Shown in pieces: positions 34,737 through 43,111 of a stretch of DNA of 64,000 bases. The DNA comes from Acidobacteriota bacterium (GTDB lineage: Bacteria > Acidobacteriota > UBA890 > WLXD01), in assembly GCA_963666055.2 (NCBI GenBank), contig CAXWPH010000007.1:293921-357920 (forward strand), written 5' to 3'. The position numbers and the translations under genes are program-made. The notes below the pieces were generated by a model. That model saw only the letters and a program-made list of their open reading frames with translations, made no database searches and was not told the origin of the DNA. The first letter of the stretch is position 1. The number at the start of each line of letters is the position of its first letter.

Positions 34737-34873
34737 GCCAGCTGTAACGCTTCCTCGAGCCAGGCCAAGCGCTGCTCCGGCGTGGCCGTGATTGTGGCTT
34801 CCAGATGCTGGCGCTGCGTACCTTCCCAACTCGCGTCCCACGATTCCATGCGGTCGGCGCGCTTAGCCATCAT
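34691..34873 (-). CDS. Small helical protein coupled to the nucleotidyltransferase gene
   Basis: 60 aa, TPEQRLAWLEEA; start overlaps the NTase stop. Confidence 0.65.
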   Translation of the reverse strand: MMAKRADRMESWDASWEGTQRQHLEATITATPEQRLAWLEEALQLAYLSGALDELRAKPR

Positions 34874-35372
34874 CGCTCGCTTGGCGGGCGCGCAGGATGG
34901 CCTCGAGCTGCACGATGTCGGCCTGATCCTGCGGTCGGCCAGCCAGGCGCTTCAGGCGGATCAGGTGAGGGATCGATACGACTCGTACGGTCGTGTCACG
35001 CAGGTCGAACTCGACGGAGCTCTCCCACAGCTCATCGAACGGAATGGGATACTCCGCAAATAGGTCTACTACGCGCATCGGGTTGTTCGGGTCGAGCATC
35101 GAGAACACCTTCATTCCGCGCTCACGGACCCACGCCTCACGAACCGTCGCGTTGGCAAAGTCACTTGCGTTGACTGGCAGTCTCGGCTGCAGTCCCGATG
35201 CGGCGAGGACGTCGATGGCCTTGGCCGCCTCGAAGGGGTCGAGGTCGACGATAAGGTCTACATCTACCGTCAACCGCGCGTGGCCGTGCAGCACCACGGC
35301 GAGCCCGCCTACGACGACGTAGCGCACGTTGGCCGCGTTCAACGCCGCGAAGAGTGGTTCGAAAATCGCCAT
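34863..35372 (-). CDS. Nucleotidyltransferase (pol-beta superfamily, DUF6036-like)
   Basis: YVVVGGLAVVLHG..RLTVDVD; LIRLKRLAGRPQDQADI. Confidence 0.85.
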   Translation of the reverse strand: MAIFEPLFAALNAANVRYVVVGGLAVVLHGHARLTVDVDLIVDLDPFEAAKAIDVLAASGLQPRLPVNASDFANATVREAWVRERGMKVFSMLDPNNPMRVVDLFAEYPIPFDELWESSVEFDLRDTTVRVVSIPHLIRLKRLAGRPQDQADIVQLEAILRARQASDDG

Positions 35373-35503: not shown

Positions 35504-36235
35504 CTACTTCCAGGTGACCTCCATGGCGAAGAAGTGATCGAACACCTCGCGAGTCGGGTTGTTGCGGGCATCCACCTCGGGGCTGCGGATGAAGAAGTCG
35601 AGCTGTTGCACGGCCGGATTCACCGCGCCTGCCGATGAGCGTTTGTTGAGCAGCGGATAGTTGACCTCCAAGGTCCGTCGATCGCGCATGCCCTGGGTAA
35701 CCATGAAGTGCACTTGATACTCGTCGTAGATGCGCTCGCCGTTGAGCGTCGCATGGCCGTAACCCCAGCCGGCCACATAGATGAAGGTCTTCGGCCAGTT
35801 CGTATCGCCACAGCCGGAGTCGCCGTGTTCGTACAGGTACGCCGCGACGCCGCCGTCCTGGCATGGACTGAACTCGTGAAAGCGGTCCATGTTCACCACC
35901 AGCTCGCCCTCCGGCAGGTCGAGGCGAGCCGAGAAGCGCCCGCTGTTGTTGATCTCGTCGACGTCAATCTCGACCGTGCCGCCCACAGCGCGAACACTCG
36001 CCGCGTCGTTCCCCATATGATCCCACCCCGGCGCTTCGTCGAGCCGCCCGACCTGGTGGATACGCCCCGCCGACAAGACGAAGCGTCCGTCGTAGAGATC
36101 GTGCTGTTGCGGCGCATAGAGGGTGATCTCCGCGCCCGGCTGCTGGCGGGGCGTTGATTCCTGCGTCGCCAAATGCGCCGGTGCGCCCACCATCAAAACG
36201 GCCACCATGGTCATGTGCGAGCTCAGCCTCAACAT
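35504..36235 (-). CDS. Hypothetical secreted protein
   Basis: RBS AGGAGG, signal peptide, Cys/His motifs CQDGG...HGDSGCG...HFM. Confidence 0.75.
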   Translation of the reverse strand: MLRLSSHMTMVAVLMVGAPAHLATQESTPRQQPGAEITLYAPQQHDLYDGRFVLSAGRIHQVGRLDEAPGWDHMGNDAASVRAVGGTVEIDVDEINNSGRFSARLDLPEGELVVNMDRFHEFSPCQDGGVAAYLYEHGDSGCGDTNWPKTFIYVAGWGYGHATLNGERIYDEYQVHFMVTQGMRDRRTLEVNYPLLNKRSSAGAVNPAVQQLDFFIRSPEVDARNNPTREVFDHFFAMEVTWK

Positions 36236-36263
36236 CGATGTGCCTCCTGTCGCGCTTGAGAGG

Positions 36264-37040
36264 TCAGCGACTCTCCTGCGAAAACCGCGCCTCGACGATC
36301 TCGGTGCTCCCTGCTTCGACTTCAACCGAGACCCTTTGCTGGCCCAGCTTCTCGTGCCAGAGCTCCAGCTGGTAGGTGCCCGGCGGAACCTCAGGAATGC
36401 GGAAGACGCCGGCCGCGTCCGTAACGGCATGAAACGGGTGCGCGTCGATCCTGATGAACGCCTGCATCCACCCGTGTACGTCGCACTTGACGATGATCAT
36501 CCCTTCCTCCGCAACCACGGTATCGATGCTCATTCCCGTCGACGGCAACGCCATGTTGACGCTGTGGGCACCGTAGAAATGCTCGGTATGGAGCACCGCG
36601 TCGCTGTTGGTAGCGGTGATCGTGCTGCCTACGGTAAGCACCGCGGCGTGCGGAATGAAGCGGCAGCCCCGGTTGTCGAGCACCAGGCGCTCCGCAGGGC
36701 GAGCAGGTATCTTGTCCCGGGGCACGTCGAGCAACGCGACGATCACGTTGCGAATACCGCCGTCGACGGCCGACACGAGGAGATCCTCCAGGCTTTGGGC
36801 CTCGCCACATAGCTCCGGATCGGTGGTGTTTCGCACTCGCGTCGGCTCGGGGATCGTGGCGGCGGTTAGCCGGACAACACCCTCGACGGTGCCCGTTTCT
36901 GACGACGAGCCGGAAGACGCGTCGCGCAGAGGCTCCGTGTCCGGTTGGCAGCCGACCGCGAGAACCACCATCAGGCTCGCAAGCAGCCGGGCCGCGCCCG
37001 GCAGGGGCGCAGACGGTGAACGGACGATGAAACCCACCAT
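36264..37040 (-). CDS. Lipoprotein with cupredoxin-like and carboxypeptidase-regulatory-like domains
   Basis: Lipobox LAVGC; LDNRGCRFIPH, NSDAVLH, KCDVHGWM, VPPGTYQLELWHE. Confidence 0.85.
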   Translation of the reverse strand: MVGFIVRSPSAPLPGAARLLASLMVVLAVGCQPDTEPLRDASSGSSSETGTVEGVVRLTAATIPEPTRVRNTTDPELCGEAQSLEDLLVSAVDGGIRNVIVALLDVPRDKIPARPAERLVLDNRGCRFIPHAAVLTVGSTITATNSDAVLHTEHFYGAHSVNMALPSTGMSIDTVVAEEGMIIVKCDVHGWMQAFIRIDAHPFHAVTDAAGVFRIPEVPPGTYQLELWHEKLGQQRVSVEVEAGSTEIVEARFSQESR

Positions 37041-37197
37041 GTGACCACGGTAGTTGGTCGCCACGGTGAAGTCATCCGGCACCAAGAGGACGGGCTTCCA
37101 GGCGCGCTGAAGGTGTTGTTGGCGGCGGCAACTTGGTAGGCTCCGCGGCAAGGGACTATCGCATGTGCCTCGTTGGACCCGATATCGGAGGAGCATT

Positions 37198-38604
37198 GTG
37201 TGGTTCGAGTCGATCCTGAGACGAGAGACCGGCTGTGTCACCTACATGGTCGGCTCGACGGTCAGCGGCGAGTGTGCCGTCTTCGATCCGCTGTGGGACA
37301 TCGACCCCTACCTACACCTGGCGGCGTCCAAGTCGTCCCGCATCCGCTACATCATCGACTCGCACAGCCACGCGGACCACGTGTCCGGGGCGCGACGCCT
37401 GGCTACGGCGTGCAGCGGCGAGCTGGTGCTGCCGGAGCTCGCCGAGATCAACTACGAGGCCACACGGGTAGCGCCCGGTGACCGGCTCGTCCTGGGCGAT
37501 GTGGCCTTGGAGATTTTCCACGCTCCGGGGCATCGGCCAGAGCAAATCAACCTCCTGGTCTTCGATCACGGCCGGGGCGACGACCCCTGGTGCCTGCTAA
37601 CCGCGGATTTTCTGCTCGTCGGCGACCTGTCACGGCCGGACCTCGCACAGGATGGCGAGGACGGGGCGCGAGCGCTCTTCGATGAGGCGCTGCCTCGGCT
37701 CCGTGAGCTCCCCGATTTCGTCGAGGTTTATCCGGGACATGTGGCGGGCTCCACCTGAGGACGCGTCACCAGTGGCAAGGTTGTCACCACGATCGGGTAT
37801 GAGAAGCGCAACAACCCCGCCCTGCAGTTCAAGGAGCGCAACGCGTTTATCGCGTACATGAACGCCAATCAGCCGATTCGTCCAGCCAACGTCGAGAACA
37901 TCGTCGCGATCAACCAGGGCAGAAGGCCGTTGACGATGGACCCGCCCCGCGCCCGCCCCCTGAGCCCGGACGAGTTCGCCGAGCTGGCCGACGACGGCCG
38001 GCTCGTCATCGACGCCCGATCGGCGGCCGCCTTCGGCAGCGGACACGTTCCGGGCGCCATGAGCATCCTGCAGAGCAGCCCCGAGTTCGAACAGCGGGTC
38101 GGCTGGGTGACCCCGCCCGACGTGCCATTCCTGCTGGTCACCGACGACGCCGAGGCAACGGAATGCGCTCTCCACGCGATGGCCTTCCTGGGGCTGGATT
38201 CTCGAGTCGAGGGGGTTCTGGCCGGTGGCATGAGAAGCTGGCTGCGCGCCGGACGCCCACAGGAGACGTTGCCGCAGATGAGCGTCCACGAGCTTGCCGC
38301 GGTACTGTCCAACGGCGGCGCGATGCAGGTGCTCGACGTGCGCGAAACCTCGGAGTGGGACGCCGGACACGTCGACGGTGCCCACTACATGAACTACAAG
38401 TTCCTCGCCGACCGGATCGACGAGCTCGAGCTGAGCATCGACAGTCGCGTATCGGTCCTCTGCGCCGTTGGGGCTCGATCGAGCACCGCCTGCAGCATCT
38501 TGCTGCGCAACGGCTTCCGTCGCATTCGCAACGTGACCGGCGGCATGGGTGCGTGGGCGGCCGCCGGGCTGCCCATGGTGGACGCTGCCGGCGAGCCCGT
38601 TTAG
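37198..38604 (+). CDS. MBL-fold persulfide dioxygenase + two rhodanese domains (CstB-like), with in-frame TGA (codon 187) probably read as selenocysteine
   Basis: RBS GGAGGAG; SHSHADH, PGHRPE, YPGHVAGST-TGA-G...TTIGYEKRNN; rhodanese IDAR...GHVPGA; active-site LCAVGARS. ORFs 37165-37758 and 37858-38604 share one frame. Confidence 0.85.
37759..37795 (+). promoter_or_regulatory. Putative bacterial SECIS element
   Basis: Hairpin GUGGCA-AGGU-UGUCAC (37772-37787); the loop starts after a 19-nt gap from UGA and has G as its second base. Confidence 0.65.
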
Positions 38605-38673: not shown

Positions 38674-39960
38674 TCAGAAAGCGTACCGCAGCACCCGCGC
38701 AACGTTGATGCCGACCAGCATCGTGCCCACCGCCAGCGCCGCGGCCCCGACAGAGATGGCCATCTCGTTCCCTGCTATCAGGCCGACGGCGAGTACTGGA
38801 ACGCCGAGCGTCCATAGGGTGAAGCTGGCGGCCTGAAGGCGCCGGCCCATCATGGTGTACTGCGAGGGAACGTCTGGTTTCTGTCCGTAACGCACGAACT
38901 GCTGGAGCCAGGTGACCAGCGGCAGGATTCGCGTTGCCACGCCGATGACAATCTGCGACAGGAAACCTACGAGACCCAGCAAGCCGTAGACCGCCATCAG
39001 GCGCAGCTCGGTCTCCGATGGCTGCATGTACAACAGCGCCATGCCGAGCGTCGCGCTGAGCGCCAGGTAGCCGATCGCCTGCATCACATGCAGCACCCCA
39101 TAGTCGGGTTTGATCAGCGCCTTGGGGGCAGGGCGCGGAGATCGGATCATCCACGCCACCCTGGAGGCGAACGCGACGATCCCCAGAATACTCAGCACGG
39201 CGAACGCACCGGTCCATCGGCTGGCGGTAATCAGGCTGGCGAACAGCCCCAGCACACCGATCTCCAGCAGACAGGCACTAGCGTAGAGGCCCCGCTCCGG
39301 GGGTACTGCCGTGGGCAACATCATCGGCAGAAGCCGATAGGCGAGCCCGATCACCATCATCGTTGCCCAGCCGAGCGCCGCGAGATGGGCGTGCGCGAAC
39401 ACGTTCCCCAGAATATGGCCCGGCACCGCGTCGACTTGGAGCTTCTCCAGGCCGGTGAGCGCTCCCCAGATTCCAGCCACCAGCATGTTCACAAACGCCA
39501 GCACGATGTGGAGCTTGATCGGCCACGGCATCGCCCCGGGCAACACGGCGCGCAGCACACGCCAGGCGACAAAGGCGATGCTGAGCAGCAACATGCCCGC
39601 CGACCACAACATGCCGTTGTAGCGATTCAGCCAGAAGTGACTCGCCAGCCCCGCCACTCCGGTGAGGAAAAGAGCGCACGCTACGATGTCTGAGCGTCGA
39701 GCCGCGATCGGTGTGCGTAGGGCGATCGGTCCGACCATGTAGATCCAACCCAGAATCGAGCCGGTGATCCAGCCCAGCGTGACCAGATGAACCAGCGCCA
39801 TCGCCTGCGGGTGATAGAAAAAACCCGCCAGGATGCCCGGCCGCCAGGCGAGCATCGAGAACGCCGTGATCAGCGCGATGTGGGCGCCCGCCAGGTAAAG
39901 CCCCGGCACCAGCCTCGGGGGGAGGCGCTCGAGCTTCGCTGGGTCGGCCGCTGTCGTCAT
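38674..39960 (-). CDS. Polytopic membrane protein, NnrS/heme-copper-oxidase subunit I-like
   Basis: About 12 TM helices; HLVTLGW, HAHLAALGWATMMVIG, RILP. Confidence 0.7.
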   Translation of the reverse strand: MTTAADPAKLERLPPRLVPGLYLAGAHIALITAFSMLAWRPGILAGFFYHPQAMALVHLVTLGWITGSILGWIYMVGPIALRTPIAARRSDIVACALFLTGVAGLASHFWLNRYNGMLWSAGMLLLSIAFVAWRVLRAVLPGAMPWPIKLHIVLAFVNMLVAGIWGALTGLEKLQVDAVPGHILGNVFAHAHLAALGWATMMVIGLAYRLLPMMLPTAVPPERGLYASACLLEIGVLGLFASLITASRWTGAFAVLSILGIVAFASRVAWMIRSPRPAPKALIKPDYGVLHVMQAIGYLALSATLGMALLYMQPSETELRLMAVYGLLGLVGFLSQIVIGVATRILPLVTWLQQFVRYGQKPDVPSQYTMMGRRLQAASFTLWTLGVPVLAVGLIAGNEMAISVGAAALAVGTMLVGINVARVLRYAF

Positions 39961-40059
39961 GCGGCGATCGTACTGAAGAACGCTCTCGCCCGCCGGATAG
40001 CGTCCATGCAATCACCGATCCCGTGACACGCTCCGACTTGCATTCACGGTTTTGTATCT

Positions 40060-40104: not shown

Positions 40105-40425
40105 ATGGGACGCGACTCGCTCGGCGACTTCGAGCAGCTGGTGATGCTGGCGGTGGCGCGGCTCGGCGGCGACGCCTACGTTGTGCCGATCATCGCCGAG
40201 ATCGGCGACCGCACCGGACGTCGGGCTAGCCACGCGGCAGTCTACGTGGCGCTCAAACGGCTGGAGACCAAGGGGCTGGTAAGGTCGCGGCTCGGCGAGC
40301 CGACCGCCGAGCGTGGCGGCCGAGCGAAGCGCTTCTTCACGCTGGAGCCCGACGCCATCGAACGCCTGCGCGGCTCGCGCGACGCGCTGTTGTCGATGTG
40401 GCAGGGCCTGGAAGAAAAGCTGTGA
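40105..40425 (+). CDS. PadR family transcriptional regulator
   Basis: LGDFEQLVMLAV, AVYVALKRLE, ERGGRAKRFF. Confidence 0.92.
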   Translation: MGRDSLGDFEQLVMLAVARLGGDAYVVPIIAEIGDRTGRRASHAAVYVALKRLETKGLVRSRLGEPTAERGGRAKRFFTLEPDAIERLRGSRDALLSMWQGLEEKL

Positions 40426-43111
40426 GCCGGCGCGCGCGCCACGGGAAGGCGCCGGATTTCGCCACCAAGCTCGTCACCCGACTGCTGCCGCCACCGTCGA
40501 GACACGACGTGCTCGGCGATCTGGAAGAGGAATTCCAGCACCTGCGACGCACCCACGGCGGGTTGCGAGCCTGGTTGTGGTACTGGCGTCAGACGATCGC
40601 CTTCGCCTGCAAGCTTCCGGCCGCCGGCCTGGCCGGCGGTCTGCCAGAAGATCCCCGTCGTGAGCACAACGTGATCGGCAACCTGGCAGCGGACATTCGG
40701 TTTGCAGTGCGCAGCCTGCTGGCCGAACCGCTGTTCGCCTTCGTAGTCATCGCCACGCTGGCGCTGGCGATCGGCGCCAACACCGCTATCTTCTCGGTAG
40801 TCAACGGAGTGCTGCTGAGCCCCCTCGATTACCCGGAGCCCGACCGGCTGGTGCGGGTGTATCAGTACTACTCGCGCAGCGGCGGCTTCGAGAGCGCCCC
40901 GACAAACTTCGACGTTGTGTCGCCCCTCGACTACACCGACTACCGGGATCAGCTGAGTACGTTCCAGTCGCTGGCGGGGATGGGGAACTACGGCCCGATG
41001 GGCTTCGATCTCACCGGCGAGGGCGCGCCGCAACGAATCTCCGCACTATACGTGACATCGGACTATTTCGACGTCTACGGCTTGCGCCCGATGACCGGGC
41101 GAGTGTTCGAGCGCTCCGAGGAGGACGGCAACTCCCGCGTGGTGATCCTGTCGGCGAGGCTGTGGCGGAGCCTCTTCGAAAGCGATCCTGAGATCGTCGG
41201 CCGCACGATGACGCTCGATGGCGAGGCCTGGGAGATCGTCGGCGTCATGCCCGCCGGCTTCGTCGATCTGGTGGGCGACGACGTCGACGTGTGGGTGCCA
41301 CACGACATGACGCCCGGCGGCTTCAACACGCGCGGCAACCACTATATGACGGTCGTCGGTCGACTCGCCCCCGGAGTGACGCTGGCCGAGGCGCAGCAGC
41401 AGCTCACTGCCTTCGACGAGCAGCTGGCCCGCCAGTATCCGGAGTCGAACGACGGACGCTATGCATGGATCCAACCGCTGCAAGAGGACTCGGTGGGCAA
41501 CGCCGACACCATGCTCTGGGTCCTGCTGGGCTCCACCGCACTGGTCTTGCTGATCGGCTGCGTCAACGTCGCCAACCTGCTGATCGGCCGCGGCATGACG
41601 CGGCGCAAGGAGCTCGCCATCCGCGCCGCCCTCGGCTCGGGGCGACTGCGTCTGGTTCGGCAACTGCTTACCGAGAGCCTCCTGTTGGCGCTCATCGGCG
41701 GCGTGCTGGGCGTTGCGTTGGCGGCGATGACGACGCGCGCCTTGCTGCGCCTCGCGCCGCAGTCCCTCACGCTCATCAACGACATATCGTTCGACTCGCG
41801 CGTGCTGGCGCTCGCCCTCGCCACTTCGCTGTTGACAACCGCTGTCTTTGGGCTGGTCCCCGCCTTTCGCAGCGTCGGGAAAGACCTCGAGACGGCGTTG
41901 CGCGAGGACGACCGCGGCAACAGCGGTAGTCGGGGCACCAACCGCATGCGCTCGGCGTTGGTGGTGGGCGAGGTCGCGTTGGCGCTCGTGCTTCTGATCG
42001 GAGCGGGCCTGATGATGCGCAGCTTCTGGCTGCTACAGACTCGTGACATTGGCGTGGACCCGAGCAACGTGACGACGTTCGAGCTACGGCTGCCGGAGGC
42101 CCGCTACGACACGGCGCAAGAACGTGAGGGCTTCTACCAGGAGCTGCGACGGCGTGTCGCTGCCATCCCCGGCGTCGATGCGGTCGGCGCCGTCCAGTGG
42201 CTGCCAGTCACTGGTACCTACAACGTTTGGGGGTACGCGACGGCCGACCCGGATAGCGACTCGGGCTGGGATCACCACCTCGCCAACATCCGCGTCATCT
42301 CGGGCGACTATCTCGACCTGTTGGGAATCCCGCTGCTGGCGGGGCGCCGCTTCGGTCCGGACGACGCACTGGGCGCACCGTTCGCGGTGTATCTCAACGA
42401 GGCCGCGGTTGCGGACGGCTGGGGACCCGGAGCAAACCCGCTCGGCGAGACCATCAGATCCGGCGGTCACGACGGTGAGATCGTCGGCATCGTCGGAAAC
42501 ACGCTGCTACGGCAGCGCTCGGCGTCGCCCACCCCCAAGCTGTACTTCAGCCACACGCAGTTCGCCGAGCGTCGCTGGAGCATGTTCCAGCTGCTGCGCA
42601 CCTCCGCCGATGTACCGGGCCTGATGACCGCGATCCGTACCCAGTTAGCCGAGATCGACCCGCTGCTCGTCGCCTTCAACGTGCGCACTCTGGAACGCGC
42701 CATCGGCGTCGGCATGGCCGATACTCGGTTCACCATGGTGCTGCTCGTCGCCTTTGGCTCCATGGCTGGGCTGCTGGCGGCCTCGGTACCTACGGCGTGC
42801 TGTCGTACTCCGTTGGGCAGCGCCGCCGAGAGATCGGCATTCGCATGGCCCTGGGCGCCCGCGAGAAAGAGATCCAGCGCATGGTGTTAGGATAAGGACT
42901 GGCATTCGCGGCCCTCGGCGCGGCCATCGGGCTGGTCGCTGCCTTCGCCGCTACCCGACTGATGAGCTCGCTGCTGTACGGCGTCTCTGCTACCGATCCG
43001 GCAGTATTCATCGCCGTTGGCGTCGCCGGCCTGGCGATCGCTTTGCCGGCGGCGTGGATCCCGGCGCGTCGAGCGACCAGTGTCAGCCCGGTGCACGTGC
43101 TCCGCTCCTGA
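40422..43111 (+). CDS. ADOP-type duplicated permease with a frameshift near 42782
   Basis: ATLALAIGANTAIFSVV, LIGCVNVAN. After LLAA the gene continues in another frame: GTYGVLSYSVGQRRREIGIRMALG...WIPARRA, ending at TGA 43111. Confidence 0.88.

Follow-up and report, generated by a model that had tools for sequence, protein, structure and literature searches.

The question raised by this locus is whether a TGA codon in the middle of what otherwise reads as one gene is a stop or a selenocysteine (Sec) codon and, if the latter, what reaction the complete protein would catalyse. Within the window, by which the whole 64,000-nucleotide stretch of analysed DNA is meant, the frame 37198-38604 contains a single internal stop, a TGA at codon 187 in the context YPGHVAGST*GRVTSGK, and translates into 468 residues when this codon is read as Sec; the preliminary description of this DNA, which had seen one frame split only by the TGA at 37756-37758, was correct in this respect. 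The features of the gene are listed below, all on the forward strand, with the evidence in brackets.

37198..38604 (+): coding frame, 468 amino acids with the TGA read as Sec (translation, Pfam, structure alignment, model)
37187..37193 (+): Shine-Dalgarno-like GGAGGAG, 4 nt upstream of the GTG start (sequence)
37234..37236 (+): Cys13, where CstB has Q13; this Cys is shared by 84 of 86 Sec genes (alignment)
37363..37608 (+): predicted Fe(II) triad His56 (37363), His112 (37531) and Asp137 (37606), equivalent to CstB H56/H119/D145 (alignment to 3r2u)
37756..37758 (+): in-frame TGA, predicted Sec187, equivalent of CstB C201 (ortholog columns and public contigs)
37772..37787 (+): predicted bacterial SECIS with a 6-bp stem and a 4-nt AGGU loop (37778-37781), G second in the loop, 19 nt after the UGA (folding, ortholog comparison, SECIS model)
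38287..38562 (+): C-terminal rhodanese with Arg382, Cys422 (38461-38463, in LCAVGARS) and Arg427, equivalent to CstB R370/C408/R413 (Pfam and alignment)

The letters of the TGA codon recur in public sequence data. Contigs of two public runs from two studies (X3 and X4, either of which may be the source of the assembly) cover the whole gene with zero mismatches, and a contig of run X8, which has 14 differences elsewhere, covers the TGA site with none inside the TGA; no public RNA data set is listed as carrying the gene. The codon is also clearly conserved among relatives. In a first set of 30 loci, obtained by searching 61 related genomes, column 187 is TGA in all 11 close full or near-full orthologs (this gene and 10 relatives of 62-90% identity) and TGC or TGT in all 17 distant homologs of 33-44% identity, two further loci not covering the column; one of the distant homologs, L043, comes from the unpublished genome G047, which is also counted in the selA background below, and no conclusion hangs on it. 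GTDB genomes, when scanned, yielded 91 confirmed loci, and the best 80 of these, which were used, all have TGA at the column; 56 belong to Chloroflexota, 12 to Gemmatimonadota, 8 to Acidobacteriota and 1 to Krumholzibacteriota, with 3 unnamed. The combined set minus five duplicates comprises 86 distinct genes from four phyla, in every one of which the stop at column 187 is TGA and never TAA or TAG. The open frame extends 274-294 codons beyond the TGA in 83 genes and 87, 127 and 206 codons in the remaining three, and three of the 86 loci run out before any stop is reached. At the protein level, Cys occupies the column in 112 of the 120 database matches listed for the whole protein, with the other eight not covering it, and all 606 plasmid records that match the gene do so at below 60% identity.

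A genuine stop at this codon, whether in a pseudogene or in a gene that has been split, has to be weighed here, as does its decoding as Trp or Cys by a different genetic code; these readings are judged very improbable. A genuine lesion does exist in the window, as the preliminary description had cautioned: an ABC permease-like gene that follows a PadR gene (40398-43100, +) has a frameshift at about 42780 and a later in-frame TGA and is either decayed or an assembly error. This lesion is irrelevant to TGA187, however, because the latter is common to several phyla. Databases likewise carry the two halves of the protein as separate entries. When the N-terminal half is used as query, the best 120 of 829 matching protein records all measure 184-197 residues and terminate immediately ahead of column 187 with GHxxGST or a near variant, whereas C-terminal halves make up 6 of the 120 matches listed for the whole protein; the clade is thus treated as split genes, as had been foreseen in the preliminary description, and a likely sulfide-oxidation gene is consequently hidden in genomes of Anaerolineae, Acidobacteriota and Gemmatimonadota. 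Against a true stop stand the exclusive use of TGA in 86 of 86 genes from four phyla, the loss of the catalytic loop that termination would entail and the freezing of the downstream codons into a hairpin. Decoding under translation table 4 or any other global reassignment of TGA was ruled out, since TGA also serves as the terminator of 26 among the 83 genes with a visible terminus and Trp is coded by TGG in the same set.

The preliminary description had further reported a hairpin whose 4-nt loop, AGGU, lies 19 nt past the UGA, and the hairpin is found at 37772-37787. Folded alone, it is no more stable than shuffled sequences (z of -0.10 to +0.53 in four windows), so that a single sequence could not place it beyond chance, whereas the comparison of orthologs does. 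Across the 86 distinct genes, no variation is seen in the third bases of codons 192-196, the five codons of the hairpin, and one of the six serine codons is used throughout at Ser192. In the control columns, the commonest codon accounts for at most 83% (median 51%) at 103 conserved four- to six-fold columns and does not exceed 97% at 54 two-fold ones. RNAalifold over the orthologs yields just the 37772-37787 stem, and its six pairs are all intact in each of the 77 distinct rows; five pairs are fixed, while the sole varying one is G-U in 44 rows, G-C in 31 and A-U in 2, the last accompanying a change of Gly193 to Asp, and is never mismatched. A count of covariation found no both-sided change relative to the commonest pair, with 162 of 500 shuffles scoring as high, and is uninformative because the stem hardly varies. 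Judged from sequence comparison, the hairpin is under selection, the evidence for which is the freezing of the sequence rather than covariation. In the metagenome scan the TGY form of the motif was found at two loci (L133 and L134), where the codon is TGC, other synonymous codons are used and only four of the six pairs can form; as the two loci are near-copies of each other, they represent one case of hairpin loss. The bacterial SECIS model of PMC13188914 (section 5) specifies a loop of 3-9 nt, a stem of 4-16 bp, a G in the first two loop places, a spacing of 16-37 nt and an MFE of -7.5 or lower, and the hairpin, with its 4-nt loop, 6 bp, G in the second place, 19-nt spacing and -10.8 kcal/mol, falls within all of these limits. 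The lack of relatives sharing both the TGA and the hairpin had been named beforehand as a possible refutation; both turned out to be shared.

The genome from which the window derives possesses selA, selB, selD and two tRNA-Sec genes, which answers the earlier suggestion to look for selA, selB, selC and selD. The selD gene, on contig C2, is of the Cys form, with its SelD domain (114268-115182) fused behind a long oxidoreductase-like N-terminal domain. The tRNA-Sec genes (C13:66094-66187 and C6:7936-8029) are one base apart, and other duplicated stretches are a DsrE-like gene on C14 and C15 and a Lys-Glu-Thr tRNA cluster on C7 and C10; some of these, including the tRNA-Sec pair, may be assembly duplicates. 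A tRNA-Pyl with a CUA anticodon was also called by ARAGORN at C5:65608-65685 (-) and may be an artefact. The formate dehydrogenase of the same genome has a TGA followed by a hairpin loop at the same 19-nt spacing. A rough scan for in-frame TGA codons gave 66 candidates, many of them plainly false, among which about a dozen further sites lie in selenoprotein-typical motifs with a hairpin 16-25 nt downstream. The sites with an in-frame TGA and a hairpin from this rough scan are as follows.

Contig C3: 78927 (-), 143460 (-), 186365 (+)
Contig C14: 289437 (-), 571478 (-), 448924 (+)
Contig C15: 433226 (-), 1843609 (+), 816382 (-), 748006 (-), 964774 (+), 1025443 (-)
Contig C6: 386052 (-), 365110 (-)
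Contigs C12, C5 and C10: 216070 (+, C12), 31936 (-, C5), 157505 (+, C10)

We take the motifs at these sites to be DsrE-like, DUF3179-like, peroxiredoxin/TlpA-like, deiodinase-like and rhodanese, together with presumed SelW-like, AhpD-like, OsmC-like and MerB-like ones, the formate dehydrogenase alone having been matched to a family, and the genome looks selenoprotein-rich. Among the other carriers, 60 of the 86 genomes were searched and selA passed the cut-off in 52; of the remaining eight, seven have a tRNA-Sec and four a SelB wing domain, and in one carrier genome (G097) no selA, selB wing domain or tRNA-Sec was found. This co-occurrence constitutes consistency and not discrimination, as the background is equally high, with selA in 52 of 61 relatives picked regardless of the gene. 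With Cys/TGA pairs at the column, a shared hairpin and selABCD in the genome, and with TGA rather than TGC or TGT in the public contigs, none of the three refuting outcomes named in the preliminary description was borne out; its selenoprotein reading holds at the level of sequence, and TGA187 is almost certainly decoded as Sec.

Read through the TGA, the protein consists of an MBL-fold persulfide dioxygenase domain, a middle rhodanese-like domain and a C-terminal rhodanese, seen by Pfam as an MBL domain and two rhodanese stretches. The best matches among solved structures are 3tp9 (8e-67) and the S. aureus CstB, 3r2u (2e-51). The predicted model (pLDDT 91, pTM 0.88) aligns with a TM-score of 0.85 to 3tp9 over 483 columns and of 0.84, by target length, to 3r2u, while whole-protein scores of 0.41-0.44 are obtained with ETHE1-type proteins and BpPRF (5ve3), the Burkholderia fusion scoring 0.42. 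Residues were mapped to CstB through the printed 3r2u alignment with a chain offset of 24, and their roles and numbering follow PMC12934615. First, the iron-binding site appears to be retained, as each residue of the triad is kept in 85 of 86 genes and the remaining gene does not cover them. Next, the loop carrying the TGA corresponds to that of CstB, in which C201-G202 and the hinge G198 have their counterparts in the Sec187-Gly188 dipeptide, with a predicted Sec replacing Cys, and Gly184, all present in 86 of 86 genes. The preliminary description had equated the TGA column with the sulfur-carrying Cys of CstB, and the mapping to C201 bears this out; it had also taken the Cys to be oxidised, which does not stand, since in CstB the sulfur carried on C201 undergoes oxidation (S-sulfonation of the persulfide) and not the Cys itself (PMC12934615). 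Finally, Arg382 is found in 84 genes and Cys422 and Arg427 in 83 each, the others not aligning there, and the rhodanese Cys is indeed intact in LCAVGARS, as had been noted before. H58 and R154 of CstB are likewise kept as His58 and Arg146, all mapped key residues being conserved in 83-86 of the 86 genes, and K203 maps to Arg189.

Several CstB residues are nevertheless not kept: F61 is replaced by His61, F148 by Leu, Met or Gln at position 140, L205 by Thr, Ser or Lys at position 191, Q13 by Cys13 and C20 by Ser20. F148 and L205 have been called invariant in CstB-like proteins, and a change of Q13 to Thr inactivated CstB (PMC12934615). Cys13 is also nearly invariant among the Cys relatives of the present protein. 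The protein is therefore filed as a CstB-like subfamily and not as a strict CstB, because F148, L205 and Q13 are not kept; by its predicted anatomy, it is CstB-like and forms a distinct subfamily.

With His61 in place of the CstB Phe, the protein has a full HxHxDH motif, and many database labels, such as the JGI one of hydroxyacylglutathione hydrolase, would make it a glyoxalase II-like two-metal hydrolase. Of all the readings considered this is the least credible, as the GloB model TIGR03413 gives 46.2 bits against a cut-off of 200.8, such structures rank below the CstB-type and ETHE1-type ones in the model comparison, and a hydrolase would require neither Sec nor a rhodanese.

The genomic surroundings bear on what the enzyme would act upon. 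Neither a sulfur operon nor a cst operon is found in the 64-kb window, where the gene is preceded by a carboxypeptidase-regulatory-like gene in divergent orientation and followed by a convergently oriented gene for a membrane protein. The 445-aa membrane protein at 38674-40011 (-) has a weak COX1 match below the cut-off; other genes nearby encode a 308-aa secreted-looking protein without a Pfam match (35504-36430, -) and a DUF6036 nucleotidyltransferase-like protein, possibly half of a toxin-antitoxin pair (34863-35372, -). Eight sulfur-type neighbours recur in the set of 80 loci, of which 49 carry one or more of them within 5 kb and about 30 have none, the neighbours being a molybdopterin oxidoreductase (39 loci), TorD-like (35), two YeeE/YedE (29 and 28), FeS-NrfD (23), SulP-rhodanese (9), SQR-like (8) and DUF1641 (7) proteins. 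The sulfur neighbourhood is largely that of one lineage, as it occurs at 48 of 56 Chloroflexota loci but at only one of the other 24; neighbourhoods of the non-sulfur type are varied, as judged from a scan of 53 of 90 picked ORFs. A search of the source genome with one query found no SQR-like match.

The preliminary description had left open sulfide, persulfide or selenium detoxification, and the neighbourhoods favour sulfur over selenium. A selenoprotein handling selenium species such as selenide or perselenide in place of sulfur is improbable; the carriers are Sec users and rhodaneses can carry selenium (PMC9369223), but no selA, selB or selD lies within 5 kb of the gene in the 85 loci searched, the recurring neighbours are families of sulfur transport and oxidation, and Cys forms exist in the same subfamily.

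A somewhat stronger competitor, although still an unlikely one, is a selenoprotein with chemistry other than that of CstB, which would either release sulfite like a canonical persulfide dioxygenase or act as an O2-free sulfane-sulfur shuttle feeding a Psr/Phs-like molybdoenzyme. The three differing CstB positions (Cys13, Leu/Met140 and Thr191) are in line with this, as is the commonest neighbour (39 of 80 loci), the molybdopterin oxidoreductase accompanied by FeS-NrfD and TorD proteins; the nearest solved match of the oxidoreductase is 2vpw, titled thiosulfate reductase. The same type of FeS-NrfD, molybdopterin oxidoreductase and TorD-like cluster is also present elsewhere in the source genome (L139, C15:1605494-1611000), with a large subunit 57% identical; its family, the usual Chloroflexota neighbour of the Sec gene, passes no NCBIfam cut-off when tested on the L120 homolog. 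On the other hand, the CstB-specific loop, Gly184, Arg146, Arg382, Cys422 and Arg427, which in CstB couple the two active sites (PMC12934615), are kept, and the predicted fold fits the CstB type far better than the Burkholderia fusion.

We consider it probable that the gene encodes a 468-residue selenoprotein, a persulfide dioxygenase-rhodanese fusion of the CstB type that oxidises sulfane sulfur to thiosulfate; given Sec decoding, the thiosulfate relay, drawn by analogy, is itself quite likely. Given the conservation of the TGA, the freezing of the hairpin, the presence of the Sec machinery, the modelled CstB fold and the catalytic residues described above, a reaction cycle can be proposed, the catalytic steps of which are all taken from S. 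aureus CstB (PMC12934615). Following the standard bacterial pathway, SelB would read the hairpin 19 nt downstream of the UGA and insert Sec. The Sec187-Gly188 pair would then take the place of glutathione beside the Fe(II) held by His56, His112 and Asp137, and Sec187 would accept sulfur from a small-molecule persulfide or polysulfide. The outer sulfur would be oxidised by Fe(II) and O2 to a tethered sulfonate (Se-SO3-), upon which the loop, hinged at Gly184, would swing to the rhodanese domain, steered by Arg382 and Arg427, where the persulfide of Cys422 would release thiosulfate and free the selenolate. The use of selenium at this residue may be explained by general Sec chemistry: both as a nucleophile and as a leaving group, a selenolate surpasses a thiolate, and its oxidation beside iron and O2 is more easily reversed. 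Cys13, located at a second-shell position, may help to rescue the oxidised selenolate.

In two quick trees, which included 34 and 18 of the 86 Sec rows, a single long branch (support 100) unites every Sec row with the closest Cys rows and separates them from the Cys proteins of the Thermomicrobium/Ktedonobacteria type. Three changes at column 187 are seen on these trees, and as a single Sec clade is not rejected (p-AU 0.36), neither a single gain of Sec nor reversion is established. The phyla are intermingled on the tree, which suggests gene transfer between them.

Table 1 of the 2026 selenoprotein catalogue (PMC13188914), which takes in the families of Haft and Tolstoy 2025 and not the candidates of Deng et al. 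2026, has no MBL-fold or dioxygenase entry among its 119 families, and these words are absent from its accompanying text. In BSepDB, SelCysML and deep-Sep, too, the words lactamase, dioxygenase and rhodanese are absent from the main texts, and literature listings and abstracts gave no report of a selenoprotein of the CstB type. No model of NCBIfam 20.0 is passed by the protein, with NF041203 scoring 26 bits against a cut-off of 115. As far as can be judged from the sequences, this is a real, widespread and very probably undescribed selenoprotein subfamily of CstB-like persulfide dioxygenases. On balance, we lean towards the fuller proposal of a selenoprotein family that spans several phyla, has not been described before and would be the first with a metallo-beta-lactamase fold. 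In it, a non-heme iron dioxygenase would use its own Sec as a covalent substrate carrier at the iron and form thiosulfate by way of a Se-S bond and a seleno-sulfonate. The bacterial selenoproteome consists mostly of thioredoxin-like redox proteins (PMC13188914), and the family would, if real, bring into it a fold and a class of reaction that are both new, the latter being that of an O2-dependent iron dioxygenase. It would also provide a natural Se/S pair at the very residue on which the proposed self-sulfonation and swinging-loop mechanism of CstB rests, so that selenium spectroscopy could follow an intermediate which the CstB authors could only infer, and the Sec enzyme would test why cells pay for Sec beside iron and oxygen.

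Compared with known systems, the protein most resembles CstB (3r2u) and the Alicyclobacillus protein 3tp9, with which it shares the three-domain layout and fold, the iron triad, His58, Arg146, the loop Gly184, an X-Gly dipeptide at 187-188, the rhodanese Cys422 and both steering arginines, and from which it differs by the predicted Sec in place of Cys201 and by a sequence identity of just 27-31%. The Cys members of the same subfamily (P0002-P0014, L133 and L134) share Cys13 and the rhodanese site and, in the nearest cases (53-60% identity), the STCGRVTSGK motif, but carry Cys at 187, encoded by TGC in L133 and L134, which have no hairpin. The Thermomicrobium and Ktedonobacteria CstB-like proteins, at 41-48% identity, likewise have Cys at 187. 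Two other close relatives, P0016 (a Caldilineaceae record) and P0032, are devoid of exactly the catalytic loop HVAGSTCG and the rhodanese arginine and are likely, judging by these losses, inactive or repurposed paralogs, and the source genome itself has a single-domain Cys paralog (C14:536376-537071, +) that is 44% identical, with a GSVCG loop and no rhodanese. The ETHE1-type persulfide dioxygenases and BpPRF share the MBL-fold domain and the same iron ligands, and BpPRF also has a rhodanese; their substrate is free glutathione persulfide, which they oxidise with release of sulfite (PMC12934615), in contrast to the tethered-loop design of the present protein. Finally, the rhodanese-like selenoproteins of forms 1-5 and the selenoprotein type III SQR (PMC13188914, Table 1) are similar in combining bacterial sulfur handling with a predicted Sec at the catalytic Cys position; compared with forms 1-5, however, the rhodanese site here stays Cys422, and the only TGA is located in the dioxygenase loop.
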